Assembly (NCBI GenBank): GCA_021734595.1
Contig: JAIPIO010000001.1
Location: forward strand, 1 to 60,726
Source of the DNA: Kiritimatiellales bacterium
Lineage (GTDB): Bacteria; Verrucomicrobiota; Kiritimatiellia; Kiritimatiellales; Pontiellaceae
Length of the DNA stretch: 60,726 bases
Reading direction: 5' to 3'
Within the stretch, counting starts at the first letter, position 1. Each line of letters starts with the position of its first letter. Positions 1,139 through 60,579 of this stretch are shown piece after piece. The position numbers and the translations under genes were made by a program. A model generated the notes under the pieces. It did not search any database. It worked only from the letters and a program-made list of their open reading frames with translations, and had not been told where the DNA came from.

Positions 1139-1215
1139 TTCCAACCATTGGAAAAAGCGGTTGTCATATTTCCAGACGCTGGAAAATCATGAGAGCGATT
1201 CTCCAACCATTGGAA
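1139..1215. repeat. Three phased TTCCA-N5-TGGAA palindromes (function unknown; candidate protein-binding sites)
   Basis: TTCCAaccatTGGAA at 1139, TTCCAgacgcTGGAA at 1170, cTCCAaccatTGGAA at 1201. The spacing is exactly 31 bp. Confidence 0.85.
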
Positions 1216-1446
1216 GGCTGCTGCCAATCCTCCTTCGTAAAACTACGGCACGACATGTGGTTGGAAACCCGTGATTAGGTGGTATATTCAAGTCGTCATG
1301 AACTGGAGATTCAATATGCTGCCTAGTCCCTTGCATTCTATCTTGTCATCATTTGAACCACTCGCCCTTCTCGTTATTTTCTTTAAGAATATTATTTCCG
1401 CGGCGTTCCAAAACACCCCGTTTTTAATCCGTTCAGGAGGAATATT

Positions 1447-3759
1447 TTGACCACGAAATACACAAAAGCATTTCACCGGATTGTTATTGGTTTGTTTTCG
1501 TGTGGTTCGTGTATTTCGTGGTTCAGATCTCTACTGCGAAGCAGCGTTAGAACCGCCGTTTGTTCACTCTGCGTCGTTGCATTTGCGGCGACCTTCCAAC
1601 CCGCCGCCACAGCCACCGAAAAAATCATGCCGGCCGAATGGAAATTCCAGTCGTGGCAGGATGCCGAGGGGTGGCGGGACGGTAGCATATCCCGCTCCGG
1701 CGGCGAGAGCCTGGGCCTGCGGGGCATCAATGGCGGGTGGTCCACGACTGTTCCGACAAAACCAGGGGCGGTGCACACGGTCCGCTTTGTCTACCGCAGC
1801 GAAAAAGCAAAGGGACGGATTGTTCTTTATGTCCGTGATCCCTCGGCCGCGAGGAAAGTGGAAACGATTCTCTACAAACCCCTGCCAATCATCGACAGCA
1901 ACCAGACAGGACAGTTTGTGGATGGCGTATATACCGGCGGTGCCGACGCGGACGGATGGATTGCATTTGAGGGCGGCGCATTCATTCCAGAGGCCAGAAC
2001 CACATCCGTCAACCTGCTGATCAAGCTGCGCGGGGCAGACCACGACGCCAAGGTCTGGCTGGATGATGTTGTGGTAACGGTCGAGGAGCCCCGTCCTATC
2101 CCGGATACGGCCAAACTGCTTTTTTCCGATGCTTCCGGGAAAGTCTGGGCCGAAAACGAAAACCGAAAGGTGCTCCCCTCGCAAAAACCGCCAACTGGAG
2201 CCCCAGCGAAGGAGATCGGGATTTCGGCGGCAAAGGGGGAGTATGAATCGTTCCAGCTTGTGGTCACGCCCAACCGCGAATGGAAGGATGTCAAATGGAC
2301 ATGGAGCGGATTCACCGGGCCGGCGGAACTGGATGCCTCGGTATTGCGGTGCCGACGGGTGGAGCTGATCCCCATTGAAGAGACGTACGGCCCCTACGGC
2401 TACAAGGGCTTGAATCCGGACCCGCTGACAGACCCGCTTCCCTGCACGGTTCCGGCAGGCACCAACCAAGCGTTCTGGTTTACCCTTCAGGTACCGTCGG
2501 AGCAGCAGACCGGAATCTACCGGACTGAACTTGCCTTGGTTCCGGATGCCCAGACCGTTTTGAAAATACCCGTCCAGTTGCACGTCCGGAACTTTTCGGT
2601 TTCCATGGCCCCTTCCATTGCAGTTACCTCGCACTTCCGCGCCCCGCTTGCGCTAGCAAGGGAATCCGGACCGGAGGACGAGGTGCTGCAGCGGTATTAC
2701 CGGAACTGTTTCGACCACCGCTCCACCTGCTCCCCCGGAGTGCAGGTCGGGATTCGGCGGCGTGGCGATACCGTGACAGTGGATGCGGAGCGCTACATCG
2801 AACATCTGCGTTTTATGCGCGATGAATTGGGCTCCGATCACATCAATGTTCCCTCGCTGTGGATCGGCCATGCAGAAGGCCATCTCATGCCTGCCGATGC
2901 CCAATGGAAGGGACGAACCATATTTTCCAACCCGGAGCTCACCGTACTTAATCCGGAGTTCGAAAAACCGTTCCGCGATTATATGGGCCAGCTGTGTGAG
3001 AGGCTGAAAAACGAAAAACTGTTTGTGAATCCGACGGTAAGGTTTTTCGATGAACCGCGCTTTGAGGATCAGGCAACGGTCAACGGGCTGCGCACCCTTT
3101 CGAAACTGCTGCTGGATATTGACCCCGAACTGACGGTCAGTATTGCGGCCAGCTACCCCCACCCCGGCCTGATCGATGTGATCCGGCTGTGGATTCTCCA
3201 TACCGACGCATGGGACCGCAACCTCCACTGGATAGAGGCCGCCAGAAAAGCCGGATGCTATATTTCCGTCTACAACAACGGCATAAACTATCCCGAACAC
3301 CGCCCGATCCGCATCCGGCTCTGGCCGTGGCTGTTGTGGAAGTACGGCGTCGACGGCACCCACTCCTGGTGGGGCATGGTCTGTTGGCGGAACGAAATGG
3401 CCGATCCGTGGACTGCCGGAAGAGGCAGCTCCGGCGTGATGCTCTATCCCCCCCGGTCCGCCGATGAAAAGGGCCCCATTGATTCAATCCGCTGGGAACT
3501 GTTCCGGGAGGGTTTGGAGGATTATGAATACATGCGCCTTGCAAACGACCTGGCAGATAGACTAACCGCACAAAGCAAGTTGAAGTCGGTACAGATCGGC
3601 AGGGACGCCCTTGCCGAGGCCGTCGGCCTGGTTGAAAAATGGCCGAACGTGAAAGCGGCCAACGACGAGCCCTACACCCTTGATGCGGGCGCGGTGGCCC
3701 TGGCGCGGAACCGGTTGGCGGAGGCGATTGAAACCATGCAACAGGAACTGGATAATTAG
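1447..3759 (+). CDS. Exported glycoside-hydrolase-like protein with DUF4091/GH123-type C-terminal region
   Basis: TTG start 7 nt after GGAGG (1436-1440). N-terminal hydrophobic signal. The C-terminal WWGMVCW...GSSGVMLYPP...GPIDSIRWELFREGLEDYEYMRL matches the DUF4091 signature as I remember it. Confidence 0.75.
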   Translation: MTTKYTKAFHRIVIGLFSCGSCISWFRSLLRSSVRTAVCSLCVVAFAATFQPAATATEKIMPAEWKFQSWQDAEGWRDGSISRSGGESLGLRGINGGWSTTVPTKPGAVHTVRFVYRSEKAKGRIVLYVRDPSAARKVETILYKPLPIIDSNQTGQFVDGVYTGGADADGWIAFEGGAFIPEARTTSVNLLIKLRGADHDAKVWLDDVVVTVEEPRPIPDTAKLLFSDASGKVWAENENRKVLPSQKPPTGAPAKEIGISAAKGEYESFQLVVTPNREWKDVKWTWSGFTGPAELDASVLRCRRVELIPIEETYGPYGYKGLNPDPLTDPLPCTVPAGTNQAFWFTLQVPSEQQTGIYRTELALVPDAQTVLKIPVQLHVRNFSVSMAPSIAVTSHFRAPLALARESGPEDEVLQRYYRNCFDHRSTCSPGVQVGIRRRGDTVTVDAERYIEHLRFMRDELGSDHINVPSLWIGHAEGHLMPADAQWKGRTIFSNPELTVLNPEFEKPFRDYMGQLCERLKNEKLFVNPTVRFFDEPRFEDQATVNGLRTLSKLLLDIDPELTVSIAASYPHPGLIDVIRLWILHTDAWDRNLHWIEAARKAGCYISVYNNGINYPEHRPIRIRLWPWLLWKYGVDGTHSWWGMVCWRNEMADPWTAGRGSSGVMLYPPRSADEKGPIDSIRWELFREGLEDYEYMRLANDLADRLTAQSKLKSVQIGRDALAEAVGLVEKWPNVKAANDEPYTLDAGAVALARNRLAEAIETMQQELDN

Positions 3760-3762
3760 CCG

Positions 3763-4401
3763 ATGATACGATCATTTTTCATAGCCACATTCTATGACGC
3801 CTTCATGCGGGGCTGCGAGCGGCGGTGCCTCGGTGAATGGCGCCGGGAGCTGCTGGCGGAAGTCAGCGGCGATGTGCTGGAGATCGGCGGCGGGACGGGC
3901 GTCAATCTGCAGTATTACCCCAAAACGCTCCGCAGGCTTGTTCTGACGGAACCGGATCCGAACATGCGGCAGCAGCTACAGAAAAGCGGCATGACGGTTG
4001 CCGACTTCCGTGCCGAAAAGATCGACCTGCCCGACGAGTCCTTCGACTGCATCGTATCAACGCTGGTGCTGTGTTCCGTTGACAGCCAGGCCGCCGCACT
4101 TAACGAGGCCTTCCGTCTGATTCGTCCGGGCGGGTCGCTCTATTTTATTGAGCATGTGGTTGCGCCGAATAACGAGAAACTGGCCCGCTGGCAGAAACGG
4201 CTTGAACCCATTTGGCTATGGGTCAGCAGAAACTGCCATCTGTCTATGGACACCGCCCGGGCAATCAGAGAGGCGGGCTTTGAATTCATCCGGTTTGACG
4301 CAGTCTCCATGATCGGCGCACCGTCAATCGTCCGGTCGGTCATAAAGGGGGTGGCCCGCAAACCCAACTGCCGACAATCCCTGCTTGAGGGCAACAGCTA
4401 A
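3763..4401 (+). CDS. Class I SAM-dependent methyltransferase
   Basis: Motif [12 protein letters not shown] and post-[16 protein letters not shown]. Starts 4 nt after the upstream stop. Confidence 0.85.
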
Positions 4402-7468: not shown

Positions 7469-8788
7469 ATGAACTTTGTTGAACAGGTCGGCAACGCACT
7501 CAAAGCCGGCGGTCACCAACCCGGTACGGCCCTCGTCGCCGGGGTTTCCGGCGGCGCGGATTCGGTGGCGCTGCTGCGCTCTTTCCATGCACTGGGAATT
7601 CCCGTCACGGTTGCCCACCTCAACCACCAGCTGCGCGGCGCGGACTCCGACGCCGACGAGCAATTCGTCCGCGCGCTCGCCGATGAATTGAAATTTCCAA
7701 TGGTTGGAAGATCCTGCAATGTCAAAAAGCTGGCGGCGGATAACGGCTGGTCGCTGGAGATGGCGGCACGGCAGGCGCGGCACGGGGTTTTCGGGGCGGT
7801 TGCCGATGGCGGCATGGTTGCGCTGGCGCACAACGCGGACGACCAGGCGGAAACCTTCCTGCTCAAGCTCGCCCGCGGTGCGGGACCGGACGGCTTGAGC
7901 GGAATGCCGGCGTTCCAACCTCTGGACAACTTTTCGGTGATTCGTCCCATGCTTGGAATTTACCGGACGGAAATCATCCAATGGCTGGAAGCAACCGGCT
8001 TCGGCTGGCGCGAGGACGCCAGCAACCGGGACGATGCCTTCCTGCGCAACCGCGTCCGCCACGAAATTCTTCCAATGCTTGGAACCCGCCTCAACCCGGA
8101 TATCAAGAACACCATCCTGCGCACCATGGACGTTCTGCGGGCGGAGAACGAGTGGATGGATGGGATGCTGGACGGCTTTACGCTGGACACGGATCAACCC
8201 ATGGCTCTCCAGCGGAGATTATTACGGAAGTGGCTGTTCGAACAAGGCGCGGACAACGTCACTTTCGGCGCGATCGATAAAATCCTGTCCCTGATCGCTT
8301 CCGGCAACGGGACAACCACCTTTGAGTTGAACGACCGGCAACGCGTGGTGGTGGAATACGGCACGCCGCGCTTTGAACATGTGGAGCAGACTTTCCAGTC
8401 TGCTCGGGGCAGACAGGAATGTCTGCCCCACAATCCTGCATGGAAACTGCACTTTGAATTTGGAGCCGGATGGAAAAAGGATCATGGCCGCGGTGCGGGG
8501 ATTTTGCCGGCGGAAGCATCGTTCAACGCAGACAAAGTCGGCGACGCCCCCATCAAGGCCCGCTGTTTCCGTCCGGGCGACCGCATGAACCCGCTGGGCA
8601 TGGAGGGCAGCCGCAAGCTGCAGGATATTTTTACGGACCAGAAAATCCCGCGCGCGCAGCGGGTGGAAATTCCGGTGGTGGAGTGCCGGGGCGAAATCAT
8701 CTGGATTCCGGGCTACCGCACCGCGCGGAGCTGGGAAGTGCGCGGAACGGACGGTAAAGCAGTGCATGTACGCATTGAACACATTTGA
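7469..8788 (+). CDS. tilS: tRNA(Ile)-lysidine synthase TilS
   Basis: PP-loop VAGVSGGADSVALL and conserved RPML/LPML segments. ATG 7469 lies 6 nt after the secA stop; the longer track ORF from 7409 overlaps secA. The tilS-ftsH neighbourhood is widely conserved. Confidence 0.92.
   Translation: MNFVEQVGNALKAGGHQPGTALVAGVSGGADSVALLRSFHALGIPVTVAHLNHQLRGADSDADEQFVRALADELKFPMVGRSCNVKKLAADNGWSLEMAARQARHGVFGAVADGGMVALAHNADDQAETFLLKLARGAGPDGLSGMPAFQPLDNFSVIRPMLGIYRTEIIQWLEATGFGWREDASNRDDAFLRNRVRHEILPMLGTRLNPDIKNTILRTMDVLRAENEWMDGMLDGFTLDTDQPMALQRRLLRKWLFEQGADNVTFGAIDKILSLIASGNGTTTFELNDRQRVVVEYGTPRFEHVEQTFQSARGRQECLPHNPAWKLHFEFGAGWKKDHGRGAGILPAEASFNADKVGDAPIKARCFRPGDRMNPLGMEGSRKLQDIFTDQKIPRAQRVEIPVVECRGEIIWIPGYRTARSWEVRGTDGKAVHVRIEHI
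8406..8429. repeat. GC-rich perfect hairpin (REP-like) embedded in frame in tilS
   Basis: GGGGCAGACA ggaa TGTCTGCCCC: 10-bp perfect stem with a 4-nt loop, translated as RGRQECLPH. Confidence 0.8.
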
Positions 8789-12372: not shown

Positions 12373-12418
12373 TTCCAACCGTTGGAACTTTTCTGCATAA
12401 TTCTTCCAGCCTTTGGAA
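12373..12418. repeat. Two phased TTCCA-N5-TGGAA palindromes in a divergent intergenic region
   Basis: TTCCAaccgtTGGAA at 12373 and TTCCAgccttTGGAA at 12404 (31 bp apart). The second ends 14 nt before ATG 12433. Confidence 0.85.
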
Positions 12419-13352: not shown

Positions 13353-14558
13353 ATGGACAGAATTATTGCCATAGCCGGGCTCGCCGTTCGCAGCGCCATC
13401 CGCTCGCGTGTGGTGGCCGTGCTGGCCGGTTCCGTGCTGGTGCTGGTTGTCCTGCTGCCGCTGACACTGAAAGGCGACGGTACTGTTGAAGGTTATATCC
13501 ATATTCTGCTTTCCTATACCCTCGGTGCCCTCTCCTTTCTGCTCTCGCTGGCCACCCTTTGGGCAGGCTGCGCCGCCGTTTCTACGGACGTGCGTGGCCG
13601 GCAGATCCACCTGATTGCCGTAAAACCGGTCCGGCCCGTCGAAATCTGGCTCGGGAAATGGCTTGGATTGCTGGCGCTCAACGCCGTACTGCTGGCCGCC
13701 GCCGGCACACTGATCTACGGCATGCTGCGCTGGAACACCCGGCCCGCCGCTTTGGATCCGGCCGACCGCGCAACCATTCAATCCCAACTGCTGACCGCCC
13801 GGAAAGCGGTTCCCGCAATCACCGACGGCAAGGTTTTCGGCATCACCTCCGGGGCTTCCAGGCATTGGAAATTTCAGGCTCCGGTTTTCCAAACATTGGA
13901 AACGGGCACCCCGCTGTTTCTCCGCTACCGGATTTCGGCCACCGACATCACCGCGCTGCGCGTGAAGGGACGCTGGAGAACCGCCGGTTTCGAGGCGGAA
14001 ACTGTTTTTATGCCCAACACATTCCAGACCTTGGAACTCCCGTTTCCAGGCATTGGAAAAGACGGAGCACTCGATCTTGAATTCATCAACAGCCACGACC
14101 GGCCACTGACATTGGTTTTCGACCCGCAGCACCCGCCCGCAATCCTCTACCGCTCCGGCAGTTTCGAGATGAACTATGCCCGCTGTCTGCTGATCATTTT
14201 CTGCCAGCTTGCGCTGCTCGCCGCCGTCGGGGTAAGCGCCGGAAGCGTTTTTACCATGCCAGTGGCCGCCTTTGTTTCGGTCTGGGTGCTCATTATGATC
14301 GCATCCAGCGGATTTATTGAACACATGACCGCCAGCGAAAACGCATTGGCCCGGCTCTGGTTTCATTTCCTGAACCTGGTTCTGCTTCCTTTCCGAAACG
14401 AAAATCCACTGGAACCGCTGGCAACCGGCCGTGCGGTTTCATGGGCGGCCGTGGGCCTGGCCGTGCTGCTCAAGGCGGTCCTGTTTTCGGGGTTGCTGGC
14501 ATGGGGAAGTGTCGCCCTCTTTAAACGCGGCGAGATCGCGGGAGGCGGGCGATCATGA
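13353..14558 (+). CDS. ABC-2 type (NosY-like) permease with a large extracytoplasmic insert
   Basis: Starts 2 nt after the ATPase stop. Multiple hydrophobic helices at both ends, with a soluble insert of about 150 aa between them. Confidence 0.7.
   Translation: MDRIIAIAGLAVRSAIRSRVVAVLAGSVLVLVVLLPLTLKGDGTVEGYIHILLSYTLGALSFLLSLATLWAGCAAVSTDVRGRQIHLIAVKPVRPVEIWLGKWLGLLALNAVLLAAAGTLIYGMLRWNTRPAALDPADRATIQSQLLTARKAVPAITDGKVFGITSGASRHWKFQAPVFQTLETGTPLFLRYRISATDITALRVKGRWRTAGFEAETVFMPNTFQTLELPFPGIGKDGALDLEFINSHDRPLTLVFDPQHPPAILYRSGSFEMNYARCLLIIFCQLALLAAVGVSAGSVFTMPVAAFVSVWVLIMIASSGFIEHMTASENALARLWFHFLNLVLLPFRNENPLEPLATGRAVSWAAVGLAVLLKAVLFSGLLAWGSVALFKRGEIAGGGRS
13856..14058. repeat. Four perfect TTCCA-N5-TGGAA palindromes inside the permease CDS (two phased pairs)
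   Basis: Starts at 13856 and 13887 (31 bp apart) and at 14022 and 14044 (22 bp apart). Translated as ..HWKFQ.., ..FQTLET.., ..FQTLEL.., ..FPGIGK.. Confidence 0.85.
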
Positions 14559-16339: not shown

Positions 16340-16354
16340 TTCCAACCCTTGGAA
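16340..16354. repeat. Single TTCCA-N5-TGGAA palindrome between the EIIA-like gene and the antiporter gene
   Basis: TTCCAacccTTGGAA, 14 nt before ATG 16369. Confidence 0.8.
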
Positions 16355-20998: not shown

Positions 20999-21076
20999 TT
21001 CCAATCCCTGGAAAAGAGAAAGGCCGGAACTTCCAATCCCTGGAAATTCCGGCCGTGCTTATTCCAACCGTTGGAA
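20999..21076. repeat. Three phased TTCCA-N5-TGGAA palindromes
   Basis: Starts at 20999, 21031 and 21062 (32 and 31 bp apart), between the Gfo/Idh/MocA stop and the fadD start. Confidence 0.85.
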
Positions 21077-21079
21077 CGC

Positions 21080-22600: not shown

Positions 22601-25135
22601 CTAGCGCCACTCATGTTTGGGATAGCGCCCTTTTAGCTCCTTTTTCAGCAATGGATAGGTCTCCCGCCAGAAGCTCTGCATATCCTGCGTCTTTTGCTGC
22701 GGGCGCTGGTTCGGGGCCAGCGCCTCAACCACAACCGGAATCCGGCCGAATCCAATGGTTGGACTTTTTTCGAGGCCATAGAGTTTTTGGATCGTTGCCG
22801 ATACCACCGGCGGCTGCCCCGCTTCGTAGCGGACGCGGGCATTGATCCCGCTCGGAAGCTTGATCCGCTCCGGGGCCTGCTTTTCAACGATTTCGAGTTG
22901 CGCAGGTGTCAGCCACGACTTGACCACCTTCCAAACCGAGCGATCCTTCAGGTCTCTGCGGCAGACCGCGCCAAGGCAGATCTCCTGCACCATCGCCTGC
23001 CGCGCCTCCTCATCGATAGCCGGGATCCCGTAGTCCGGGCAGCCCGCCGCCAGGCAATTGACACGCGCAATCCACTTTTCCACCTGATCGTCCCACTTCG
23101 AAAGTTCCAGCCGCCCAGCCAGCACCTCGTCGGCTATGATTTCCGCCGCCTGCTGCGGATCGACTTCATGCACCAACCGGGAATGTAGCTCCAATCCCCG
23201 GAACGCTTTCCAATGCCTGGAAACCACACGCTTCAGTACCGGATCGAAAACCGCCTCGCACCTCTCCTCCATGTCCTCGGGAAACAGCTCGTCGAGCCAG
23301 CCCTCGGAAACAGCCGTGCAGAGGTTGAGCCGTACGTTCAGGTTGCGGCTACCTTCAATCTCGGCGATTTCGGCGGCGACAATCAGCGCGCTGTCGCGCA
23401 CCACGCTGTCACGGTCGAGATCGCCCGCACGGTTATGCACCACTTCGCAGTGCAGCGTGCCGCCGTCGCGGCGCCTGGCCACGTGGTCGGAAAAGGCGAG
23501 CAGAATGCATTTCTGCAGCTGCTCGTCGCATGGCGCGTGGTTGTTGATCTTCAGTCCCTCCTGTTCCGCAATTTTCAGGAAGCGTTCATAGAGCGGCTTC
23601 ACCTGCCGCGCCGCGCCGGCGTGAACGCCAAGCTTGCGGCAGGTATCGGCATGGTAGTTGTTCCTGTCGGCAAAAAGCCACGCACGCATCAGCCGCTTGA
23701 AGTCAGAAACATCATCCTCGCCCAGCACATCGTTCCGGTTACCGCGCGTTTCCTTGCCGGAGTTGCGTTCCAGGATGCCGCGCCCCTGCGTCAACGCGGC
23801 GATCAAGCACGCCTGCCGAACGCAGTGGTATTGCTCGCCCGCCAGCAGCATGCGCGCATAGCGCGGATGCATCGGAAACTGCACCATCTTCTTTCCGATG
23901 GCGGCAAGCTTGCCGGCATGGTCGATGGCTCCCAGGTCCGTGAGCAGCATCAGTGTCTGCTCAAGCGACTTGGCATTCGGCTTTTCCAACCAGTGGAAGT
24001 TTTCAATATCGTCAATGCCGCCCGCCTTGAGCGTCAGCACCACCTCCGCCAGATCGTGCCGCAGAATTTCGGGAAGCTCCTGCATGGGGCGGGCCACGTG
24101 TTCCTGCTCCGTCCAGAGACGGTGGCAGATGCCCGGCGCGATACGCCCGGCGCGCCCCGTCCGCTGATCGGCCGACGCGCGGCTGATGCGTTCGACCAGC
24201 AGGGTATCGATGCCGCGGTTCGGGTCGTAGCACGCGATACGGGCCAGCCCGCTGTCGATCACCATGCGGATGCCGTCAATGGTGATCGAGGTTTCCGCCA
24301 CATTGGTGGCCACCACGACTTTCCGTTGGTTGCACTCCCCCACGGCGGCATCCTGATCGCGGGCGGAGAGCTCGCCGTGCAACGGCATCACGGCAAAGGT
24401 GCGGGCGCATTTCCGGGCGCGGATCGCCTCGACCGTGCGGGAAATCTCGTAACCGCCGGGCATGAAGACCAGCACATCGCCCTCCGAGCCGGATTCAATG
24501 GCACTTTCAAAGGCATCGGCGGCGGCCTCCCAAACAGGATGGTGGCGAAAATCAATCCGTTTTGGAGCATAAGAGATCTCCACCGGAAACATCCGGCCTT
24601 CGCTCTTCAGCTCTTTGCAGGGCGCGAGGTATTCACGCAACGGCCCGGCGTCGAGCGTCGCCGACATCACAATGATCTTCAAATCCGGACGCGTCTGCTG
24701 CAATCGCAACGCGCGGGCGAGCGTGATGTCGCCATAGATGTGCCGCTCGTGGAACTCGTCAAAGATAATGGTCGAAACACCGCGCAGCTCGGGGTCGGAA
24801 AGGAACTGGCGCAACAGGATGCCTTCGGTCACATAGCGGATCTGCGTCTTTCCGGAAACATGGCTTTCAAAACGCACCTGATAGCCCACTTCATCACCCA
24901 GCCTGCCGCCGCGCTCAAATGCCACGCGCCGGGCCAGCAGTCGCGCCGCCAGCCGGCGCGGCTGAAGCACAACGATTTCGCCCGGACCTACCGCGCCACA
25001 ATCCAGTACCATCTGCGGCACCTGGGTCGATTTTCCCGAACCAGTCGGCGCCTCGATAATCAACCGAGCTTCCGATGCGAGTGCCTGCGCGAGCCCATCG
25101 CGCAGTTCATAGATTGGCAGTTCCCGGGGATTCAT
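22601..25135 (-). CDS. hrpB: ATP-dependent RNA helicase HrpB (DEAH-box)
   Basis: Walker A APTGSGKST, motif II IFDEFHERH, HA2/OB and HrpB C-terminal region. ATG 25135 is preferred over GTG 25156. Confidence 0.92.
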   Translation of the reverse strand: MNPRELPIYELRDGLAQALASEARLIIEAPTGSGKSTQVPQMVLDCGAVGPGEIVVLQPRRLAARLLARRVAFERGGRLGDEVGYQVRFESHVSGKTQIRYVTEGILLRQFLSDPELRGVSTIIFDEFHERHIYGDITLARALRLQQTRPDLKIIVMSATLDAGPLREYLAPCKELKSEGRMFPVEISYAPKRIDFRHHPVWEAAADAFESAIESGSEGDVLVFMPGGYEISRTVEAIRARKCARTFAVMPLHGELSARDQDAAVGECNQRKVVVATNVAETSITIDGIRMVIDSGLARIACYDPNRGIDTLLVERISRASADQRTGRAGRIAPGICHRLWTEQEHVARPMQELPEILRHDLAEVVLTLKAGGIDDIENFHWLEKPNAKSLEQTLMLLTDLGAIDHAGKLAAIGKKMVQFPMHPRYARMLLAGEQYHCVRQACLIAALTQGRGILERNSGKETRGNRNDVLGEDDVSDFKRLMRAWLFADRNNYHADTCRKLGVHAGAARQVKPLYERFLKIAEQEGLKINNHAPCDEQLQKCILLAFSDHVARRRDGGTLHCEVVHNRAGDLDRDSVVRDSALIVAAEIAEIEGSRNLNVRLNLCTAVSEGWLDELFPEDMEERCEAVFDPVLKRVVSRHWKAFRGLELHSRLVHEVDPQQAAEIIADEVLAGRLELSKWDDQVEKWIARVNCLAAGCPDYGIPAIDEEARQAMVQEICLGAVCRRDLKDRSVWKVVKSWLTPAQLEIVEKQAPERIKLPSGINARVRYEAGQPPVVSATIQKLYGLEKSPTIGFGRIPVVVEALAPNQRPQQKTQDMQSFWRETYPLLKKELKGRYPKHEWR

Positions 25136-25157: not shown

Positions 25158-25204
25158 TTCCCAATGGTTGGAAAAACGATCTGTATTTTTTCCAGCCGTT
25201 GGAA
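25158..25204. repeat. Two phased TTCCA-N5-TGGAA palindromes upstream of hrpB
   Basis: TTCcCAATGGTTGGAA at 25158 (one extra C) and TTCCAgccgtTGGAA at 25190. Confidence 0.8.
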
Positions 25205-26580: not shown

Positions 26581-26616
26581 TTCCAATGATTGGAAATCTT
26601 CTTCCAATGTCTGGAG
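26581..26616. repeat. Two phased TTCCA-N5-TGGAr palindromes between convergent genes
   Basis: Starts at 26581 and 26602 (21 bp apart). A further perfect copy at 26696-26710 lies in the 3' end of the next CDS. Confidence 0.85.
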
Positions 26617-26624: not shown

Positions 26625-28205
26625 TCAGCGCACTACTTCAACCATGTGCAGCAGCAGAGGCGACTTCCCGGCGGATAGGGTGATTTTTGGACTTTTTCCA
26701 ACCATTGGAAACTCCGCCGTCTGCCAGCGTTTGCTTCCGCCCATCTTGACGGCAGACTCCTTTGTTCCAGCGTCGAGCTGGAATGCGCCATTTCCGTCGT
26801 CATAGAAGGTGACCCGGATTTTCGCGCCACCCTTGAGGCTGGCGGCAAAATTCCTGTTGAGTGCCAGCTTGATTTCCTTGCCGGCGGGCAGCTTGCGCGC
26901 CCACGCGCCGAAGCGCTGGCCGTCGGGGCCGATGTTGGTGATCCCCTGCCCGACCGACCGGTCGCCCGGCAGGCGTTCCATCAGGAAGGTGTAGTCGGTG
27001 TTGAAAAATTTCAACTTTCGGCGCTCCGCCGAAACTCCGTTGGCAGCCAGGACGGTATCGTTTTCGCGAAAGGCGATCCATGCGCCGGGCGAGTCTTCCG
27101 GCGAAGCGTGATAGCCGGCATACGTTGCGGCAAACTCCAGCGCCTGGGTAAACTCCTCCTGATACGTTCCATCCTTCCCGTCGGAATAATTCACCCCGGT
27201 GCTGCGGTAGGTTCCGTCCATCGCGACCTGCACATTGTTGGCATAGACAGCTATGAAAGAAACCCCGCAGTGCAGGTCGTTGAGCAGCCGCCAATACATC
27301 CATTGCGGCGGAGTGCACCAGCGGTCGTCGGTCTTGCCGCCGTGGTGGCCCCAGGCCGAGGCCCACGGTTCGGCATAGGCGGTGGTCATGCCGCTGCGGC
27401 AATCGTCAAAGAAGCGACGGTACTTTTCTTCGGCAAACGAGGCACGCGGTTCGGCCTCGCTTGAGGTGTGGAACCAGCTCAGCGTACCATCCTCGAACAT
27501 CGACCGGTACGGTCCGATGACCTCCTCCTTCACCCCGTTTCGAACAAATACGCGTATCTTGCCTTTGAAGTTGGAGACGTAGGTGTCGACCACACTGCGC
27601 AGATATTCCTCCACCACTTTTTTGTCGTATCGAGTAACAGTCTTATGATCCACGCCTTTGGGAACAATCCATTTGCCGACCGACATATCCGGATTGCCCT
27701 TTGCCGTGTGATGCTCCGTGCCAAATGGGTTGAAGTTAAGCCGAATGCCCAGAACACTGTCTTGGTAGTCCGACTTATCCAAATGCGCCGCCAACGCCTT
27801 GATCACATTCAGGTAGGCGTCGCGATGCACCGGATGCCAGAACATCAGGCTGCCCTTATCATCGCCGATCTGATGGGAAAGTTTCTCCGGGTGGTACGGA
27901 ACCTTGTCGAACAGCCACAACGGCTTTTTGTTCCCGTTTATCTGTAGCGTCGCCTTCTGCCCACGCTTGTTGAACCACTCCATGCTCCGGTCGATGTCCG
28001 AAAAATCATATTTGCCTTGGGACGGCTCAACATCGCGCCACTGCACCACCGTCTGCCCGCCGGTGATATATGGAAGCGAATAAACCCTATCCGTATCCCT
28101 CGAGTTCACCCAAATGGCGTACAGCCCGGCGTTTTGAACCCGTTCAGCGAACACCATGCCGGCCAATAAAACACAGCCAACCAGTACAATATATGATCTT
28201 TTCAA
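26625..28205 (-). CDS. Exported TIM-barrel glycoside-hydrolase-like protein (clan GH-A/GH42-like opening)
   Basis: TTG start 28205, 6 nt after AAGGAGG. Signal LKRSYIVLVGCVLLAGMVFA. VVQWRDVEPSQGKYDFSDID resembles the GH-A strand-1 region. The function call is weak. Confidence 0.6.
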   Translation of the reverse strand: MKRSYIVLVGCVLLAGMVFAERVQNAGLYAIWVNSRDTDRVYSLPYITGGQTVVQWRDVEPSQGKYDFSDIDRSMEWFNKRGQKATLQINGNKKPLWLFDKVPYHPEKLSHQIGDDKGSLMFWHPVHRDAYLNVIKALAAHLDKSDYQDSVLGIRLNFNPFGTEHHTAKGNPDMSVGKWIVPKGVDHKTVTRYDKKVVEEYLRSVVDTYVSNFKGKIRVFVRNGVKEEVIGPYRSMFEDGTLSWFHTSSEAEPRASFAEEKYRRFFDDCRSGMTTAYAEPWASAWGHHGGKTDDRWCTPPQWMYWRLLNDLHCGVSFIAVYANNVQVAMDGTYRSTGVNYSDGKDGTYQEEFTQALEFAATYAGYHASPEDSPGAWIAFRENDTVLAANGVSAERRKLKFFNTDYTFLMERLPGDRSVGQGITNIGPDGQRFGAWARKLPAGKEIKLALNRNFAASLKGGAKIRVTFYDDGNGAFQLDAGTKESAVKMGGSKRWQTAEFPMVGKSPKITLSAGKSPLLLHMVEVVR

Positions 28206-31440: not shown

Positions 31441-31539
31441 TTCCAACCATTGGAGAAAAAGTTCCAATGGTTGAAAAAAGCCGGTTCTAGTTTTCCAGGC
31501 GCTGGAAGATTCATGCAACAGGTATTCCAGACACTGGAA
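31441..31539. repeat. Four phased TTCCA-N5-TGGAA-type palindromes upstream of the sulfatase gene
   Basis: Starts at 31441, 31462, 31493 and 31525 (21, 31 and 32 bp apart). The first two are joined by the linker AAAAAG, as in the 42.0-kb and 43.2-kb modules. Confidence 0.85.
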
Positions 31540-35318: not shown

Positions 35319-35365
35319 TTCCAAAGTGTGGAAAAAATATCTACCTGTTTTTCCAATGATTGGAA
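35319..35365. repeat. Two phased TTCCA-N5-TGGAA palindromes upstream of serS
   Basis: Starts at 35319 and 35351 (32 bp apart). The proximal copy is 25 nt from the serS ATG. Confidence 0.85.
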
Positions 35366-36910: not shown

Positions 36911-36938
36911 TACACGGTTTCCCGATATTGGAAAATGT

Positions 36939-41955: not shown

Positions 41956-42022
41956 TTCCAATGATTGGAAAATCAATCGATGTTTTTTCCAAGGACCGGA
42001 AAAAAAGTTCCAATGGCTGGAA
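41956..42022. repeat. Three-site TTCCA-N5-TGGAA module (31 + 21 bp spacing)
   Basis: TTCCAatgatTGGAA at 41956, TTCCAaggacCGGAA at 41987, then AAAAAG, then TTCCAatggcTGGAA at 42008. Confidence 0.85.
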
Positions 42023-43117: not shown

Positions 43118-43137
43118 TCAGGATTGTCGGAACAGCG

Positions 43138-43203
43138 TTCAATGGTTGGAAGTCCCGATTCCCCTTTTTCCAAGGATTGGAAAAAAAGTTCCAAGGGTTG
43201 GAA
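43138..43203. repeat. Three-site TTCCA-N5-TGGAA module, near-duplicate of 41956-42022
   Basis: TTC-AatggtTGGAA at 43138, TTCCAaggatTGGAA at 43168, then AAAAAG, then TTCCAagggtTGGAA at 43189. Same order, spacing and linker. Confidence 0.85.
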
Positions 43204-54079: not shown

Positions 54080-54395
54080 ATCAACGTTCCTTTTTGAACC
54101 ATAGAATGTACCGAATGGAACTTCCGTGTTTTCAGTGTATTCCGTGGTCAACCCTTCTTCTTGCCTGAATGTGTTCCAACAAAACCGCCGCTCGGTCTCG
54201 CTGTCACCCAACTACCTTCCCCATTATCAAAAACCTGAAAGAGCATAGAAAGGAATGCACTTGCCAGCAAGGAGAACCGGAACGTGAAACGTGACGATTG
54301 AAGCGTGGTTTCCTTCTGATCACGCCTCACTCTTCACGAATCATGGCCACCCGCAACTCGACTTTTGAACCCGGTTATGGCTGGATACGGAAATT

Positions 54396-54827
54396 ATGCC
54401 CCGAAAACGATCCAATCATGCACAACGCGGCAGCGCCGGGCAGAACCGGGCCGAGTCGGAGGCCTTTCTGAAAAAGAACGGGTCGAAGCCGGATGTGATT
54501 ACTACCGCGAGCGGACTTCAGTATACCATCAAGGATCCAGGCATTGGAAAAACACCGGACGAGTGGAGCACGGTCGAAGTGAACCAGCGCATCCTGCTCG
54601 TCGACGGCACCATCATCAAGGATACCTACCACGGCACCGAAACGGATACCTTCACGATCAAAGAAGCCATTGACGGCTTGAAGGAAGGGCTCCAGCTCAT
54701 GAAAGAAGGCGGCAAGTTCCGCTTCGTTGTCCCGCCCAACCTGGCATGGGGCAAGCGCGGCGCCGGTGAAAAGATCGGCCCCTACGTCGCTCTCATCTTT
54801 GACATCCGTCTTGAAAAGGTGCTTTGA
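54396..54827 (+). CDS. FKBP-type peptidyl-prolyl isomerase (FkpA/FklB-like), apparently lacking its 5' signal/dimerisation part
   Basis: ..AESEAFLKKNGSKPDVITTASGLQYTIKDPGIGKTP.. followed by an FKBP-like domain ending IFDIRLEKVL. The frame opens only at 54369, just right of the island repeat. No signal peptide. Confidence 0.65.
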   Translation: MPRKRSNHAQRGSAGQNRAESEAFLKKNGSKPDVITTASGLQYTIKDPGIGKTPDEWSTVEVNQRILLVDGTIIKDTYHGTETDTFTIKEAIDGLKEGLQLMKEGGKFRFVVPPNLAWGKRGAGEKIGPYVALIFDIRLEKVL

Positions 54828-57800: not shown

Positions 57801-57973
57801 AGGCTAATATTTTCATCTCTGTAATAGCTATTCGTGGCACACGAAACGCTGAGTATTTCCAGATCGGCTTCATTCGCTTCTCCGGAGACGATTGATGCCA
57901 GAAGCAGAACCACAACACTGAAGAGTCGGACAACCGCATGAGAAGCGATGTCGGTGTATGATTTTGCATTCAT
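54845..57973 (-). CDS. Giant exported adhesin-like protein (CARDB-like repeats, two pre-peptidase C-terminal PPC domains, Fn3, HYDIN/ASH-like domain, C-terminal beta-sandwich)
   Basis: Signal peptide. Two DD(F/A)YE(P/K)N..DDDWY..YYLKV/YFLKV PPC signatures. An Fn3-like segment TNVVAQTGSAPGTIDLSWD. IDVSPGSFDFGRLEAGQS... Ends ..MFYRLGVD. Confidence 0.8.
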   Translation of the reverse strand: MNAKSYTDIASHAVVRLFSVVVLLLASIVSGEANEADLEILSVSCATNSYYRDENISLDVRVINNGPNWCSSWTLYVHASTDSMITSTDPLLETRVRDDESQWIGPGQIDTISLSLDIPESLAEECYFIGARSECTDDPAPLNNTGFDPTPVCFTDPCDLNILEVDSTDGPFHQTEPFQVFVRVENLGPGDTSAYDVRFYASSDPGLGGSSDQLIGQTNRPAILSGEEDAFYATVCVPGPYYSETVTWGGVPSGDYYIIAIVSGPGDHTDDNDTGNDPDPVNFSRLTDLVLEEIMAPDVEVIPGNDLLFGYRFHNNGPLDCLFYRQYFYLSSDTLITDTDIRLSWSEIWTPLSAGSTTSGVNIVTVPSNVPPGDYYLGGYIEYADELVPADNTAYDASPRITVLPRLELEIAQVTTSGLPVAVGGVLELDCEIAHVSGGTCPEYTVSVYFAGNWIIPVPEFGSSCVQGPLGPGQTNLFSLSVPVPASMPVYSPLSLFYVHIDYDRPGNNGHDSISQLLQFCYDDFYEPNDNIGLAYAWPSNCLGGVLSTIDGQGLQYDDDWYSCHVDTAFGGQLVVTCSFVRAEGSLGVSAYDTTGALIAVSAECLEGEHLMVNTPTNGWYYLKVHGPNAGMAYDLSFTNRPPWPFAPTNVVAQTGSAPGTIDLSWDSCAGATGYTIHYDDGYICPPFNPADDGTPASGSDVGGVTNGVITHLSPEQFYHLAVKAYNANGESEFSEMVSARAGAAIATDDAYEKNNSLNTAWYPGSPWPGIPLSDFSGAGIQADDDWYRLVLQPIGYEHLTVTAAFVRVEGDIMLDLYDDQTNLVATSVGTHDMELIDVVCPAPGNYFLKVWGEHAGNSYNLIWNNVWVDSKPIIDVSPGSFDFGRLEAGQSSNTVFTIRNDGGGTLTGNASVSSPLSILSSTAFNLVHSQTQDFLVRFSAGSIGVFTNDLVFSGAYGTACQVTGQSGAPRPHIKNFKILSPKEAVIEWDGVKGAEYYILTNMDLASDSWSIFQYGIPGAVFNSETSKVFSATNMFYRLGVD

Positions 57974-58067: not shown

Positions 58068-58448
58068 ATGACTGTTCCAATAAGGAATCCCTGTTTCTCC
58101 CATAGCCAAAGAATCAATGTGGAACACAAAAAGAAGAACAACGCCGACAAGATACCCGGTGCAGGGAAAAGCCCCGACGAGTGGAGCACGGTCGAAGTGA
58201 ACCAGCGCATCCTGCTCGTCGACGGCACCGTCATCAAAGACACCCACCACGGCACCGAAACGGATACCTTCACGATCAAAGAAGCCATTGACGGCTTGAA
58301 GGAAGGGCTCCAGCTCATGAAAGAAGGCGGCAAGTTCCGCTTCGTTGTCCCGCCCAACCTGGCGTGGGGCAAACGCGGTGCCGGTGAAAAGATCGGCCCC
58401 TACGTCGCTCTCATCTTCGACATCCGTCTTGAAAAGTTACTCGACTAA
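58068..58448 (+). pseudogene. Second, more truncated copy of the FKBP gene 3' part (FKBP domain only)
   Basis: 58176-58436 matches 54558-54818 with 8 mismatches in 261 nt. Upstream sequence is unrelated. The first in-frame ATG is at 58068. May still be expressed. Confidence 0.5.
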
Positions 58449-59116
58449 TCGGCGGAAGCCTTAACCGACGCGTACACCGGAACGACCAGCATCCGGGTGT
58501 TGTTGTAGGCGGGAATGATAATCGAAGCGGTATGGGTTCCTGCCGGCAGGTCTTCGGGCAATACAACGGTTAGGATATATTCGTCTTTTTTGGCACCGGG
58601 CGTCAGTGAGCATTGAACCCTCTTTGAGGAGCTTCGGGGCATTCCCAAACCCAAATCCCCCTTCAGTCCGCGCAGCACCACCGTGCCGCTGTGTTCTTCT
58701 CCCGCAGGAACGTTGCGGAACATTAGCATGCGGGGGGTTATTTCGGTGCGGATCGCTGAATCCCCCTCCAGGGTCAGAGCCACAGGATCCCGGGGGGAAT
58801 CCTCGGTAAATACATAAAAGTCGCGGAACTGTTTGCCGGTACGCCCCATCAAGTCGAGGGATGCCGTGATGATCGCGCTGGCGCCCGGCGCAACAGAGTT
58901 GGTGGATGGTTCCCCCACCGAACAACCGCAATCCGTCTCCACCCGGTCAATCACCACCGTCTTTTTGCCCGTGTTCCTGAGGATAAACGCATGGGTCACC
59001 ACATCGCCCTCGGTGCGCTCGCCAAAGTTGAAGCTCGCCCGGTCGCAAACCAATTCCGCGGACGCTTCCGTCAGCAGGAGCATTCCCACCAAACAGACTG
59101 TATAAATTCTATTCAT
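58445..59116 (-). CDS. Exported DUF1573 domain protein
   Basis: Signal peptide, then FNFGERTEGDVVTHAFILRNTGKKTVVIDRVETDCGCSVGE, the characteristic DUF1573 block. Confidence 0.85.
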   Translation of the reverse strand: MNRIYTVCLVGMLLLTEASAELVCDRASFNFGERTEGDVVTHAFILRNTGKKTVVIDRVETDCGCSVGEPSTNSVAPGASAIITASLDLMGRTGKQFRDFYVFTEDSPRDPVALTLEGDSAIRTEITPRMLMFRNVPAGEEHSGTVVLRGLKGDLGLGMPRSSSKRVQCSLTPGAKKDEYILTVVLPEDLPAGTHTASIIIPAYNNTRMLVVPVYASVKASAD

Positions 59117-59738
59117 TCAACCGATCCTGCGCCCAATTTACTGGATTGTCTCTGATGTATTCCCGTATCCGATCCCATTCGTTTTCACGAACAATGCGTT
59201 CCCAATAGTTACGCTGCCACAAACGATTGTCGAACCGCAACCAGCCGTGTTGTTTCACCCCGTGTATATATTCATTGGTCGGCATCGTTTTGAACCATTG
59301 CACAACCGTTGATAATGAATGTCCTTCTCTACCCACCTGTACGGGCGGACCCATGTGTCCGCCCGGCGTTGGACTTTTCTTTGCCAGGCCCGTATTCCCG
59401 GCATGTTCGCCCTGTGCCTTACCCATTGTGTTTATCACAATAAAATGAACATGATTTGGCATCACGATCATCTCATCGCAATGCATCCCCGGAAATTTAT
59501 CCGGGATTTTATTCCACCATTTTTTGACCATTTCTCCCGCGGCAGATAATTGCACATATATATTGGGGTAATCCGGACGAACACATGGGTTCGCCCCTAC
59601 GGAATCATTTTCCCTAACCACACACCCGAAAAAATGCCTGCGACCTTGTGTGCACATGGTGACGTAATACCCACCTGACCCGGAATAATCATATCCGGGC
59701 AGGCGGATTGATTTGCGATTGGGAATCTCCTTTCCCAT
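59109..59738 (-). CDS. IS200/Y1-type HUH transposase of the REP-associated (RayT-like) class
   Basis: SIRLPGYDYSGSGGYYVTMCT, HUH motif MPNHVHFIV, catalytic Tyr block WQRNYWERIVRNE. Contains a GC-rich hairpin at 59342-59365. Confidence 0.88.
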   Translation of the reverse strand: MGKEIPNRKSIRLPGYDYSGSGGYYVTMCTQGRRHFFGCVVRENDSVGANPCVRPDYPNIYVQLSAAGEMVKKWWNKIPDKFPGMHCDEMIVMPNHVHFIVINTMGKAQGEHAGNTGLAKKSPTPGGHMGPPVQVGREGHSLSTVVQWFKTMPTNEYIHGVKQHGWLRFDNRLWQRNYWERIVRENEWDRIREYIRDNPVNWAQDRLNE

Positions 59739-59746
59739 TGAAACGT

Positions 59747-60451
59747 TTACCTGCGGCTCAGGCGCATCACGATGCGCAGGACGTACCAGAACAGCAGCGC
59801 CACCGAGGCGAACAGCTCAAGCGCGGCGCCCACATGCTGGTCAGGCGAATAATGGAGCATGATTTTCGATGTGTCGTAAAGGATCGCTCCGCTGGCGAAC
59901 ACAACCATGGCGAACGAAAAGGCCAGCCCGAGGTTAAAACCGAAAATTGCACCGCAAATGATGAGTCCCATGGCAATGAAAAAGCCGATGGTCAGAATAC
60001 CGCGCAGGAACGAAAAATCCTTGCGGGTAGTGAATACCACGGCGGTCAGTCCGGCAAACATCAGTAGCGTCAGGATTCCAGCCGTTGGAAGAACCGTCGG
60101 CGAGGAATAGTGCACCGCGATATAGAGCATCGGCACAAAGATGACTGCTTCGGCGATAACATAGAGCGTCAGTCCGGCATACTGCATCGACTGGGAGGCG
60201 GAACCGGCGGCCAATCCGCGCGCCATCCACCCGCACGGCATAAACGCGCCAAGAAACATCAACCAGCCATACTGGTTTCCATTGATAAAATTGAGCATGG
60301 CACCGGCCAGCGGCGAATTGACCAGGTATATTTCAAGACCGACGAACGCCAATATTGCCCCGGCCAGATGGGCGTAGGTACGGCGGATAAATCCGGCGCG
60401 GACGTCGGGGTCCGACTGGGCCACGGACAGGGCCTGTGCATACTGGTTCAT
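59747..60451 (-). CDS. BAX inhibitor-1/YccA family membrane protein
   Basis: FIRRTYAHLAGAILAF.., seven hydrophobic helices, ..ILYDTSKIM.. motif. Confidence 0.9.
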   Translation of the reverse strand: MNQYAQALSVAQSDPDVRAGFIRRTYAHLAGAILAFVGLEIYLVNSPLAGAMLNFINGNQYGWLMFLGAFMPCGWMARGLAAGSASQSMQYAGLTLYVIAEAVIFVPMLYIAVHYSSPTVLPTAGILTLLMFAGLTAVVFTTRKDFSFLRGILTIGFFIAMGLIICGAIFGFNLGLAFSFAMVVFASGAILYDTSKIMLHYSPDQHVGAALELFASVALLFWYVLRIVMRLSRR

Positions 60452-60512
60452 GATTTTCTCCCTTGGTGGTTCGCCCTATACCTAGCATTGTAAAAAAGTA
60501 TTTCAAGCAGAT

Positions 60513-60579
60513 TTCCGAAGATTGAAAGCTGACCGTCCGTTTTTTCCAGGGCCTGGAAACCTTTTTCCAGCCAGTGGAA
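60513..60579. repeat. Three phased TTCCA-N5-TGGAA-type palindromes in a divergent intergenic region
   Basis: Degenerate TTCCgaagatTGAAA at 60513, TTCCAgggccTGGAA at 60544, TTCCAgccagTGGAA at 60565 (31 and 21 bp apart). Confidence 0.8.

Follow-up and report, generated by a model that had tools for sequence, protein, structure and literature searches.

Helically phased TTCCA-N5-TGGAA palindromes in Kiritimatiellia and their phages as putative sites of an oligomerising DNA-binding protein

A 60.7-kb stretch from the genome of a Kiritimatiellales bacterium (contig JAIPIO010000001.1, positions 1 to 60,726; hereafter the window, meaning this whole stretch) carries a family of short palindromes, TTCCANNNNNTGGAA (TTCCA-N5-TGGAA), which are set in small arrays at whole turns of the DNA helix, lie mainly in gaps between genes of unrelated function and recur with the same spacing rule in other Kiritimatiellia and in phages. 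We propose that the units are putative double-stranded DNA sites of an abundant, highly specific and oligomerising symmetric dimer, either a nucleoid-type protein or a global regulator, and give this reading a probability of about 0.5. Full-text literature searches recovered no description of the motif. We class the family as phased protein-binding site arrays at genome-saturating density, with a real chance of something more novel, because it lacks at least one of the tested defining features of each of the following: repetitive extragenic palindromic (REP) sequences and bacterial interspersed mosaic elements (BIME), DNA uptake sequences and uptake signal sequences (DUS/USS), the highly iterated palindrome HIP1, regulon operators, clustered regularly interspaced short palindromic repeats (CRISPR) and private phage cos/pac sites.

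Over-representation and distribution of the motif

The exact motif occurs 30 times in the window against 0.07 copies expected from dinucleotide-preserving shuffles, none of 100 of which reached 30, and with at most one mismatch it occurs 45 times against 2.45 expected. This bears out the claim of an earlier note on this DNA, made from the sequence alone, that the copies exceed chance. The density of exact copies is 0.49/kb, or about one per 2 kb, and above background the window holds about 30 exact, about 12 one-mismatch and about 8 two-mismatch sites; that is, perfect sites dominate. The concentration in intergenic DNA reported in the same note stands as an enrichment but not as a confinement. 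With curated coordinates of coding sequences (CDSs), the non-coding 7.9% of the window carries 20 of the 30 exact copies, at 4.19/kb against 0.18/kb in CDSs, a 23-fold difference, while the other third lies within Pfam-supported CDSs (tilS, an ABC-2 permease gene, hrpB, BI-1 and a GH42-like gene), at a density that is still more than 100 times that expected by chance. These figures are not materially changed by the use, in the curation, of minus-strand open reading frames (ORFs) at 48-49.8 kb, where the real gene is the plus-strand pgm. Copies were also correctly said to be absent upstream of secA, ftsH, pgm and the SPFH operon, and no exact copy lies at 43.2-60.0 kb of the window, where the SPFH operon, pgm, a low-GC island and a large CARDB/fn3 gene are located.

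Anatomy and helical phasing of the units

The consensus of 392 sites is ttTTCCA[A>G]-n-[C/G]-n-[T>C]TGGAAaa, i.e. ttTTCCAR-n-S-n-YTGGAAaa, a dyad-symmetric unit whose half-site centres are 10 bp apart, with a C or G at the dyad in 92% of the sites and short runs of T and A as flanks. In 347 flanks from the outer edges of arrays, the base composition shows no structure past the second nucleotide on each side, as far as 80 nt. Because nothing is conserved there, the units are not fragments of a larger repeat, which also disposes of the possibility, entertained earlier, that they are pieces of a mobile element with conserved flanks. At positions 6 and 10 the sites of the R-type dialect comprise 208 AA, 52 AG and 7 GG combinations (205, 58 and 4 expected if the half-sites are independent), and those of a second, Y-type dialect (see below) are distributed 27/33/8 (28/31/9 expected); neither type shows selection for complementarity between these positions. 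Such independent variation of the half-sites is expected of read-out by a protein and not of base pairing. Furthermore, the central C/G of the window sites, read by eye, has no consistent orientation relative to transcription.

Successive units in the arrays of the window start 21, 22, 31 or 32 bp apart, in keeping with the rule of 21-22 or 30-32 bp given in the earlier note, and helical phasing holds also in about 98 independent metagenome contigs. The latter derive from a metagenome scan for two copies with any gap of 2-32 bp, which recovered at least 120 loci; the spacing histogram was built from 98 contigs, with GC fractions of 0.40-0.71, among the matches listed after removal of satellite-type tandem repeats, in which the spacers are conserved. 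The matches so removed, all of low GC and unrelated to the family, came from metagenome and viral contigs (L151, L162, L190 and others; L numbers denote comparison loci throughout). The histogram is sharply quantised at two, three and four helical turns: among the matches listed, 41 pairs are spaced at 22 bp, 108 at 30-32 bp and 15 at 41-43 bp, with fewer than 10 pairs at all remaining spacings within 17-47 bp, the range sampled without bias. Cellular contigs have mostly 1-4 units per array and at most 7, under the array-chaining rule and among the same matches. The spacers themselves are unrelated within arrays, between arrays and between orthologous arrays, and only their length is kept. Together, the symmetry, the independence of the half-sites, the unoriented centre and the 10.3-bp periodicity suggest that a symmetric dimer reads the DNA as a duplex, and argue against a hairpin.

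These features bear on the alternative that the units function in RNA, as transcribed hairpins (UUUUCCAA-nSn-UUGGAAAA) that might be terminators, messenger RNA stabilisers or protein-binding stem-loops. Each unit can fold, array regions fold somewhat better than shuffles (z -0.3 to -3.4), many units are situated just after stop codons, and one tips a genuine terminator hairpin (21022-21054, z -4.4). However, the arms are invariant and do not covary, the lack of complementarity selection and of a transcription-oriented centre noted above is not what RNA would require, the hairpin is followed by an A-run and no U-tail, the spacing is that of the DNA helical repeat, and Rfam and transfer RNA scans of the window and of array-rich loci recovered no match. 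We therefore consider an RNA-level element very improbable. A CRISPR array was considered and rejected: CRISPRs combine 23-50 bp direct repeats with unique spacers of much the same size and adjoin cas genes, whereas the present units are palindromes of 15-19 bp, in groups of 1-4 with spacers of 6-27 bp, and Pfam scans of the window genes found no cas operon beside the arrays.

Alternatively, TTCCA(N5)TGGAA might be the target of a Type I-like bipartite methyltransferase that has become enriched through biased repair, as a HIP1-like side effect of DNA modification or repair. Some Type I/IIB specificities have a comparable symmetric bipartite 5-N5-5 form, recognition is apparently all-or-none, copies are found in CDSs and the distribution is patchy. 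HIP1 of cyanobacteria is likewise a lineage-specific exact palindrome, present at about 1/kb in both coding and non-coding DNA. It is, however, an 8-bp contiguous palindrome for which neither phased arrays nor a strong intergenic enrichment is known, in contrast to the bipartite, phased and 23-fold intergenically enriched family described here. Biased repair would leave the phasing, this enrichment and the T/A-run flanks unexplained, and no methyltransferase or restriction-modification gene has been linked to the motif, making this the most remote of the explanations that we weighed.

Genomic context and relation to promoters

In the window the arrays are commonest in tandem gaps, with one in a divergent gap (12373) and one, as had been pointed out, between convergent genes, where the pair 26581/26602 fills a gap of 47 bp. 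Across all contigs, with rough ORF calls, tandem, divergent and convergent gaps are each occupied at about 17%. The flanking genes are diverse and have no shared function, in agreement with their earlier description as functionally unrelated. The proposal of an unusual promoter element fails on the roughly equal occupancy of the gap orientations and on the lack of a significant enrichment of -10-like hexamers at a fixed distance from the arrays: an apparent hump of such hexamers 7-11 nt after the unit was partly an artefact of neighbouring units, and with clean outer flanks 14 were observed against 9.6 expected (P=0.11). A scan with the sigma-70 consensus remained at the level of shuffles.

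Individual units are found at the -35 position of a good -10 hexamer in the case of hrpB, the ABC ATPase gene, L027 and L185, and several units have their TTCCAA half 16-18 bp ahead of a -10-like hexamer. Thus, the left half-site of the distal unit of the 12373 pair is 17 bp upstream of a CATAAT hexamer, and the TTCCAA half of the proximal unit of the 25159 pair is equally far upstream of a conserved TATAAC hexamer shared with relatives. In hrpB a hexamer of the CTATAAC/TATAAA type is conserved about 15-20 nt upstream of the ATG in the window (25139-25160) and in L002, L003, L004 and L056, so that Pontiellaceae probably combine a recognisable -10 element with a very short leader.

Cases of this kind would fit the operator of a conventional global transcription factor, that is, promoter-linked sites of one repressor or activator with a very large regulon. 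Operators of helix-turn-helix proteins are typically 15 bp long, with half-sites 10 bp apart and cooperative spacing (e.g. ARG boxes, NrdR boxes and lambda operators), and the units have this geometry; in addition, one layout, with spacings of 31 and then 21 bp, recurs upstream of three genes. The ARG boxes of ArgR, the NrdR boxes, the 15-bp sites of Lrp and other feast/famine regulatory proteins (Lrp/FFRP) and lambda OR1-3 resemble the present family in their dyad-symmetric sites of 15-19 bp with half-sites one turn apart, and in forming groups of 2-4 units at whole-turn spacing with free spacers. They differ in serving a defined regulon at promoters through degenerate sites, whereas the sites here are near-perfect, occur at about 0.5/kb in all gap orientations and are also intragenic. 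The symmetry and cooperative phasing of regulon operators are present, and the promoter positioning of a coherent gene set is absent. Against such an operator there are also the pair that fills the convergent gap, the phased pairs deep inside CDSs, the even occupancy of the three gap orientations, the absence of a fixed-distance -10 element and the flanking genes' lack of any shared function, and the sites are far less degenerate than those of a regulon would be. We regard a conventional regulon as quite unlikely.

Conservation of sites with turnover of spacers

The gap between ftsH and folP contains an array in four Y-type genomes, with 5, 4, at least 2 and 1 canonical units, respectively. 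The three relatives obtained from databases have FtsH proteins 80-84% identical to that of the query contig, and in each 22-kb locus this is the sole array; its sites are kept, the spacers have diverged and the number of units differs. Likewise, between L124 and L140, and between the phage contigs L218 and L219, units are kept, spacers are scrambled and whole units have been gained or lost. Next to the arrays of the former pair we noticed a GC-rich element of 230 bp (L124 1-230, L140 880-1110) that is about 98% identical although the adjacent arrays differ, and for which Rfam gave no match.

Sites within genes can be followed through the codons that they occupy. At the FxWLE position of hrpB the residues are FQWLE in five motif-bearing genomes, with codons that fit the motif exactly in L005, L012 and L032 and to within one mismatch in L001 and L006; the exception among motif-bearing genomes is L002, with a non-fitting FNWLE, and the motif-free genomes have FNWLE, FRWLE or FEWLE with non-fitting codons. 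At a second hrpB position L001, L002 and L005 encode SKHWK with fitting codons, and the motif-free genomes have TKHWK or TKHSK. An apparent gltX-like CDS contains two FQxLEK units 30 bp apart that are kept in two contigs 82% identical in DNA. The comparison of orthologous arrays at hrpB and serS is limited by poor synteny and by closest relatives that are motif-free.

Taxonomic distribution and dialects

The best matches of the HrpB protein of the window are 86% identical and come from metagenome-assembled genomes (MAGs) of Kiritimatiellales/Pontiellaceae, and its SerS is 85-90% identical to those of Pontiella species and Pontiellaceae MAGs. Of 80 species-representative loci, seven of Kiritimatiellales type have the motif, at 0.3-0.7/kb in L002, L005, L006 (Tichowtungia sp., a MAG with 0.69 sites/kb), L027 and L032 and weakly in L001 and L012. 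It is missing from four Pontiella-type loci (L003, L004, L007 and L056), and 1.13 Mb of other Verrucomicrobiota, Planctomycetota and unrelated genomes yielded 0 exact copies, with one-mismatch copies at a background of 0.04/kb. The closest relatives by SerS, L201 (90% identical) and L275 and L276 (88%), have no exact copy, and P. sulfatireligans, strain S94 and L277 have one to three per 21 kb. No alternative phased palindrome was seen in the motif-free relatives (L003, L004, L007, L056 and L201-203). Because the closest relatives are motif-free or nearly so, the family is one that expands and collapses quickly between sister lineages.

A second dialect, TTCCAY...RTGGAA, is present in about 25 contigs, and each contig is consistent in its dialect (R or Y), as expected if the protein and its site co-evolve. 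One Y-type contig, L090, belongs to a different Kiritimatiellia lineage, its FtsH being 57% identical to that of the window and its nearest named relatives being 'Kiritimatiellia bacterium' MAGs. The earlier suggestion of a lineage-specific global regulator or nucleoid protein remains the best reading as to the kind of protein, but the sites are not the private regulon of one lineage: the family extends over the class Kiritimatiellia, with two dialects or more, its distribution among close relatives is very patchy, and their phages carry it too. In L274 the ftsH-folP gap (11932-12070) contains, besides one canonical TTCCAC...GTGGAA unit, four TTACG-N5-CGTAA palindromes with T/A-run flanks, which stand at intervals of exactly 31 bp and in register with that unit; seen at this one locus only, they may constitute a third dialect or the site of a second protein. 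ACCTG-N6-CAGGT in L058, a contig from a Verrucomicrobiae MAG, was rejected as another dialect, its eight copies (19379-22155) belonging to a 276-bp tandem coding repeat.

Lineage-variable, palindromic, clustered and mostly extragenic sequences recall the REP family, and the units might be selfish palindromes mobilised as single-stranded hairpins by a domesticated Y1 transposase, i.e. a REP-associated tyrosine transposase (RAYT). The window does encode a RayT-like Y1 (HUH) transposase (59109-59738, minus strand), with a YDYS N-terminus, an HVH motif and a C-terminal Tyr region, 0.8 kb from the array at 60513-60579. It scores 26.4 bits with Pfam Y1_Tnp, and its best NCBIfam match, REP_Tyr_transpos, at 41.5 bits, is below the cut-off of 80. 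Its neighbourhood is shared with two loci, L278 and L279, TatD, PLDc and RayT being found in both and BI-1 in L278 as well as the window, yet the 14.9 kb of these two syntenic RayT orthologue loci hold no exact copy. Moreover, the hairpins that flank the RayT gene of L279 are GC-rich REPs of the classical GTAG type, unrelated in sequence to the units, and this REP type is at chance level in the window. Downstream of that gene, at 6670-6750 of L279, two inverted hairpins, GTAGGGGCAGAC...GTCTGCCC and GGGCGGAC...TCCGCCCCTAC, form a classical REPIN (REP doublet forming a hairpin). REP/BIME elements are imperfect palindromes of 20-40 nt with a conserved 5' GTAG or GTGG tetranucleotide and conserved linkers, and are strictly extragenic. 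The earlier note had recognised no described REP or attC family here, and the units resemble neither. Their arms are perfectly symmetric, GTAG is lacking and the spacers are unconserved; one third of the copies are in CDSs, and no co-occurrence with a cognate RAYT was found at the two loci sampled. The independent half-sites and the 10.3-bp quantisation, which points to duplex DNA, again count against mobilised hairpins. A REP/RAYT origin is therefore a weak explanation and an improbable one.

Arrays in phages

A scan of IMG/VR recovered genuine arrays in phage contigs, along with more chance matches than the metagenome scan. The longest arrays that we found are here, with 11 units in L218 (3034-3361) and 9 in L219 (2786-3030), two phages whose large terminases are 82% identical. 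Both have the same order of an array in a long non-coding region, a conserved stretch of about 300 bp, a DUF5681 small-terminase-like ORF 0.3-0.6 kb downstream of the array, the large terminase (TerL) and the portal gene. The TerL gene of L218 is at about 3959, downstream of the array; in L219 the array is about 290 bp upstream of the DUF5681 ORF (3320), followed by TerL at 3562 and the portal at 6936. L254, with a distant terminase, has four units (650-767) about 1.7 kb upstream of TerL at 2484. Phage arrays also occur away from the packaging module, for example after a major head gene in L243 and at 14358 in L254, and no small protein is conserved upstream of the arrays across all three phages with terminase-linked arrays. 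The approximately 300-bp block (within L218 2650-4000 and L219 2400-3600) is better conserved than its surroundings. Its features include runs rich in G and, immediately ahead of the start codon, a CCAATAACAAATAACCAATAACGAATAAC tract; it may be a cos/pac or regulatory region and has no Rfam match.

The proximity to terminase genes raises the possibility that the units are a transfer signal spread by molecular drive, either the site of a putative uptake receptor or the pac-like site of the small terminase of a phage or gene transfer agent. DNA with the palindrome would be favoured in uptake or packaging and would then recombine into relatives, with tolerated copies accumulating in gaps and permissive codons. 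Consistent with this, the density of about 0.5/kb and the dominance of perfect copies are like those of uptake sequences, CDS copies use permissive residues, there are dialects with a patchy distribution among close relatives, and exact copies are missing at 43.2-60.0 kb, including the IS66-like/RhuM low-GC island. Ring-shaped small terminases wrapping phased sites would also explain the quantised spacing. The DUS/USS of Neisseria and Pasteurellaceae share several of these traits (about 1/kb, mostly perfect copies, CDS copies at permissive residues, dialects), and their absence from recently acquired DNA can be likened to the present situation. Known DUS/USS, however, are asymmetric single motifs that do not form phased arrays, whereas the present units are dyad-symmetric and quantised at 22/31/42 bp. 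Similarly, the cosB R sites and the pacL/pacR boxes of SPP1, the latter bound by small terminase, are comparable to the arrays of L218, L219 and L254 in lying beside terminase genes, but repeats of cos/pac sites are private to a phage and to one locus, while the same unit here fills a host chromosome and other phage loci, including those off the packaging module. Finally, the low-density Y lineage keeps its sole array per 22 kb at one orthologous gap in four genomes, which argues for a local function rather than neutral drive. On balance, we judge a transfer signal unlikely, though it is the alternative that we would take most seriously.

Proposed mechanism and its significance

Returning to an oligomerising symmetric dimer as the preferred reading, we infer the binding of the protein, its oligomerisation and the effect of its binding from the features described above. 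Each monomer would read one TTCCAR half-site, with a G:C pair at the dyad, and adjacent dimers would touch, or share an oligomeric scaffold, only if their sites are on the same face of the helix. Contacts restricted in this manner would give rise to arrays at two, three or four turns (21-22, 30-32 and 41-43 bp) with free spacer sequence. Expanded lineages, including the present one, would have arrays of 1-4 units in about half of the usable gaps, in every orientation, and at permissive places in CDSs. The protein might act as a sequence-specific nucleoid-associated protein or a global regulator, occluding the promoter where a unit overlaps the -35 element and forming elsewhere an architectural element or a barrier to transcription between units. 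Host phages, which carry the same arrays with the longest just upstream of the packaging genes, may co-opt this protein.

Among known nucleoid systems, the NBS of Noc, SBS of SlmA (the respective binding sites of these proteins), matS of MatP and parS of ParB are also short palindromes read by dimers and scattered over the chromosome, including within genes, and SeqA, at phased GATC pairs, likewise depends on a second site on the same helical face, no farther off than about 31 bp. The spread of palindromes irrespective of gene function and into genes, typical of such sites, is seen here too. Those systems differ in having tens of mostly single sites per genome with a regional bias; the present family would comprise about a thousand or more sites, as extrapolated from the density in the window, in phased arrays with intergenic enrichment and a patchy distribution.

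Several observations weigh against the proposed dimer. A regulator would need far less information than the roughly 24 bits per site seen here at about 0.5/kb, and the dominance of perfect sites looks more like that of uptake sequences or driven elements than of a regulon. There is neither a preference for promoter-containing gaps, as judged from rough gene calls, nor a fixed promoter geometry. Density ranges over 0-0.7/kb among relatives with SerS or HrpB 77-90% identical, which is unusual for the sites of a core nucleoid protein. Lastly, when 201 array-adjacent ORFs were clustered, no recurrent gene family, and hence no candidate for the binding protein, was found beside the arrays; the clusters that did appear were artefacts of translating the arrays themselves.

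A more far-reaching version, which we offer tentatively and consider doubtful, is that some Kiritimatiellia possess a sequence-specific 'chromatin' system of a previously undescribed kind, in which one oligomerising protein, bound to near-perfect 19-bp palindromes at whole-turn spacing in permissive parts of CDSs and in roughly half of the gaps between genes, partitions the chromosome into insulated transcription units, with the system expanding and collapsing fast, drifting into dialects and being copied by phages beside their packaging site. In that event, the choice of DNA for packaging and transfer might likewise be biased by these sites. Should one protein read the sites, the family would provide a tractable case of sequence-programmed nucleoid organisation or genome-wide insulation, with near-perfect predictable sites, a strict spacing rule and natural 'knock-out' sister lineages. 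The contrasts between R and Y dialects and between rich and poor lineages offer a comparative handle on the identity of the protein, and the phage arrays beside terminase genes a testable link from chromosome architecture to DNA packaging and transfer.

The arrays also have consequences for annotation. Gene callers are misled by them into recurring FQxLE, SxHWK and FPxxGK peptides, false ORFs and false protein families, and in Kiritimatiellota annotations they may be mistaken for repeat arrays or terminators. False ORFs translated from arrays in L084, L170, L195, L090, L091 and others, for instance, share FSNHWK, FFQSLE and FPIIGK peptides and form spurious protein families.

Sites in the window

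The sites are collected in Table 1. Of 31 starts listed in the earlier note, 20 are exact and the other 11 carry one mismatch (nine starts, including 1201, 25159, 26602, 31441, 31462, 36919 and 41987) or two (43137 and 60513). Two of its coordinates were off by one (25158 for 25159 and 43138 for 43137), 26696 was taken as intergenic but belongs to the GH42-like CDS, and nine exact intragenic copies were missed (7695, 8070, 13856, 13887, 14022, 14044, 23208, 23984 and 60076).

Table 1. Palindromic units and arrays in the 60.7-kb window
Position	Strand	Feature	Units and spacing	Context
1139..1215	.	3-unit array	1139, 1170 exact; 1201 one mismatch; 31/31	232 bp upstream of GH123-like gene (1447-3759, +)
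7583..8084	.	tilS CDS copies	7695, 8070 exact; 7583, 7913, 7976 one mismatch; 7944 two mismatches; 7913/7944/7976 phased at 31/32 bp	All three reading frames used (FPMVG, FQPLD, IQWLE, LPMLG)
12373..12418	.	Pair	31 bp	Divergent gap between 11303-12268 (-) and ABC ATPase gene
13856..13901	.	Exact pair	31 bp	ABC-2 permease CDS, apparently at a loop joining membrane segments; codes for SRHWK / FQTLE
14022..14058	.	Exact pair	22 bp	Same ABC-2 permease CDS; encodes FQTLE / FPGIGK
16340..16354	.	Single exact unit		Fills 31-bp gap from PTS-EIIA-like gene to Na/H antiporter gene in operon-like gene string
20999..21076	.	3 exact units	32/31	Between GFO/IDH/MocA oxidoreductase stop codon and fadD-like gene; middle unit is tip of intrinsic terminator hairpin (21054-21022, - strand)
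23208..23222	.	Exact unit		hrpB CDS; encodes VSRHWK
23984..23998	.	Exact unit		hrpB CDS; encodes FHWLE
25159..25204	.	Pair	31 bp	Upstream of hrpB
26581..26616	.	Pair	21 bp	Fills 47-bp convergent gap (ABM monooxygenase-like, + / GH42-like, -)
26696..26710	.	Exact unit	94 bp from 26602	3' end of GH42-like CDS
31441..31539	.	4-unit array	31441, 31462 one mismatch; 31493, 31525 exact; 21/31/32	Upstream of sulfatase gene
35319..35365	.	Exact pair	32 bp	Between GH30 stop codon and serS start (about 35293)
36919..36933	.	Single unit	One mismatch	Upstream of GH30 gene
41956..42022	.	3-unit array	41956, 42008 exact; 41987 one mismatch; 31/21	Upstream of B12-binding radical SAM gene
43137..43203	.	3-unit array	43137 two mismatches; 43168, 43189 exact; 31/21	
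60076..60090	.	Exact unit		Inside BI-1 (Bax1-I) CDS
60513..60579	.	3-unit array	60513 two mismatches; 60544, 60565 exact; 31/21	Between BI-1 and divergent TetR-like gene

Other features of the window

The partial TetR-like gene at the end of the window has an inverted repeat of its own immediately upstream (60615-60649), GATTCAAAC-N17-GTTTGAATC, which is distinct from the TTCCA family. The minus-strand AMP-binding (acyl-CoA synthetase-like) gene at 19078-20811 is interrupted: its two adjacent ORFs (19078-20301 and 20308-20811) correspond to successive portions of the Pfam model, indicating a frameshift, a pseudogene or a sequencing error. The low-GC island, in which palindrome copies are absent, extends over 50061-54211 with a GC fraction of 0.46-0.49. 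It contains a RhuM-family gene and the gene for a 938-aa protein in which Cas4-like, RNase H-like and IS66 transposase domains are combined. Beyond the island, two FKBP-type isomerase genes bracket the gene for a 1042-aa CARDB/fn3 protein (54845-57973, minus strand) and share a direct repeat of 278 nt, 95% identical between its copies at 54546-54823 and 58164-58441.

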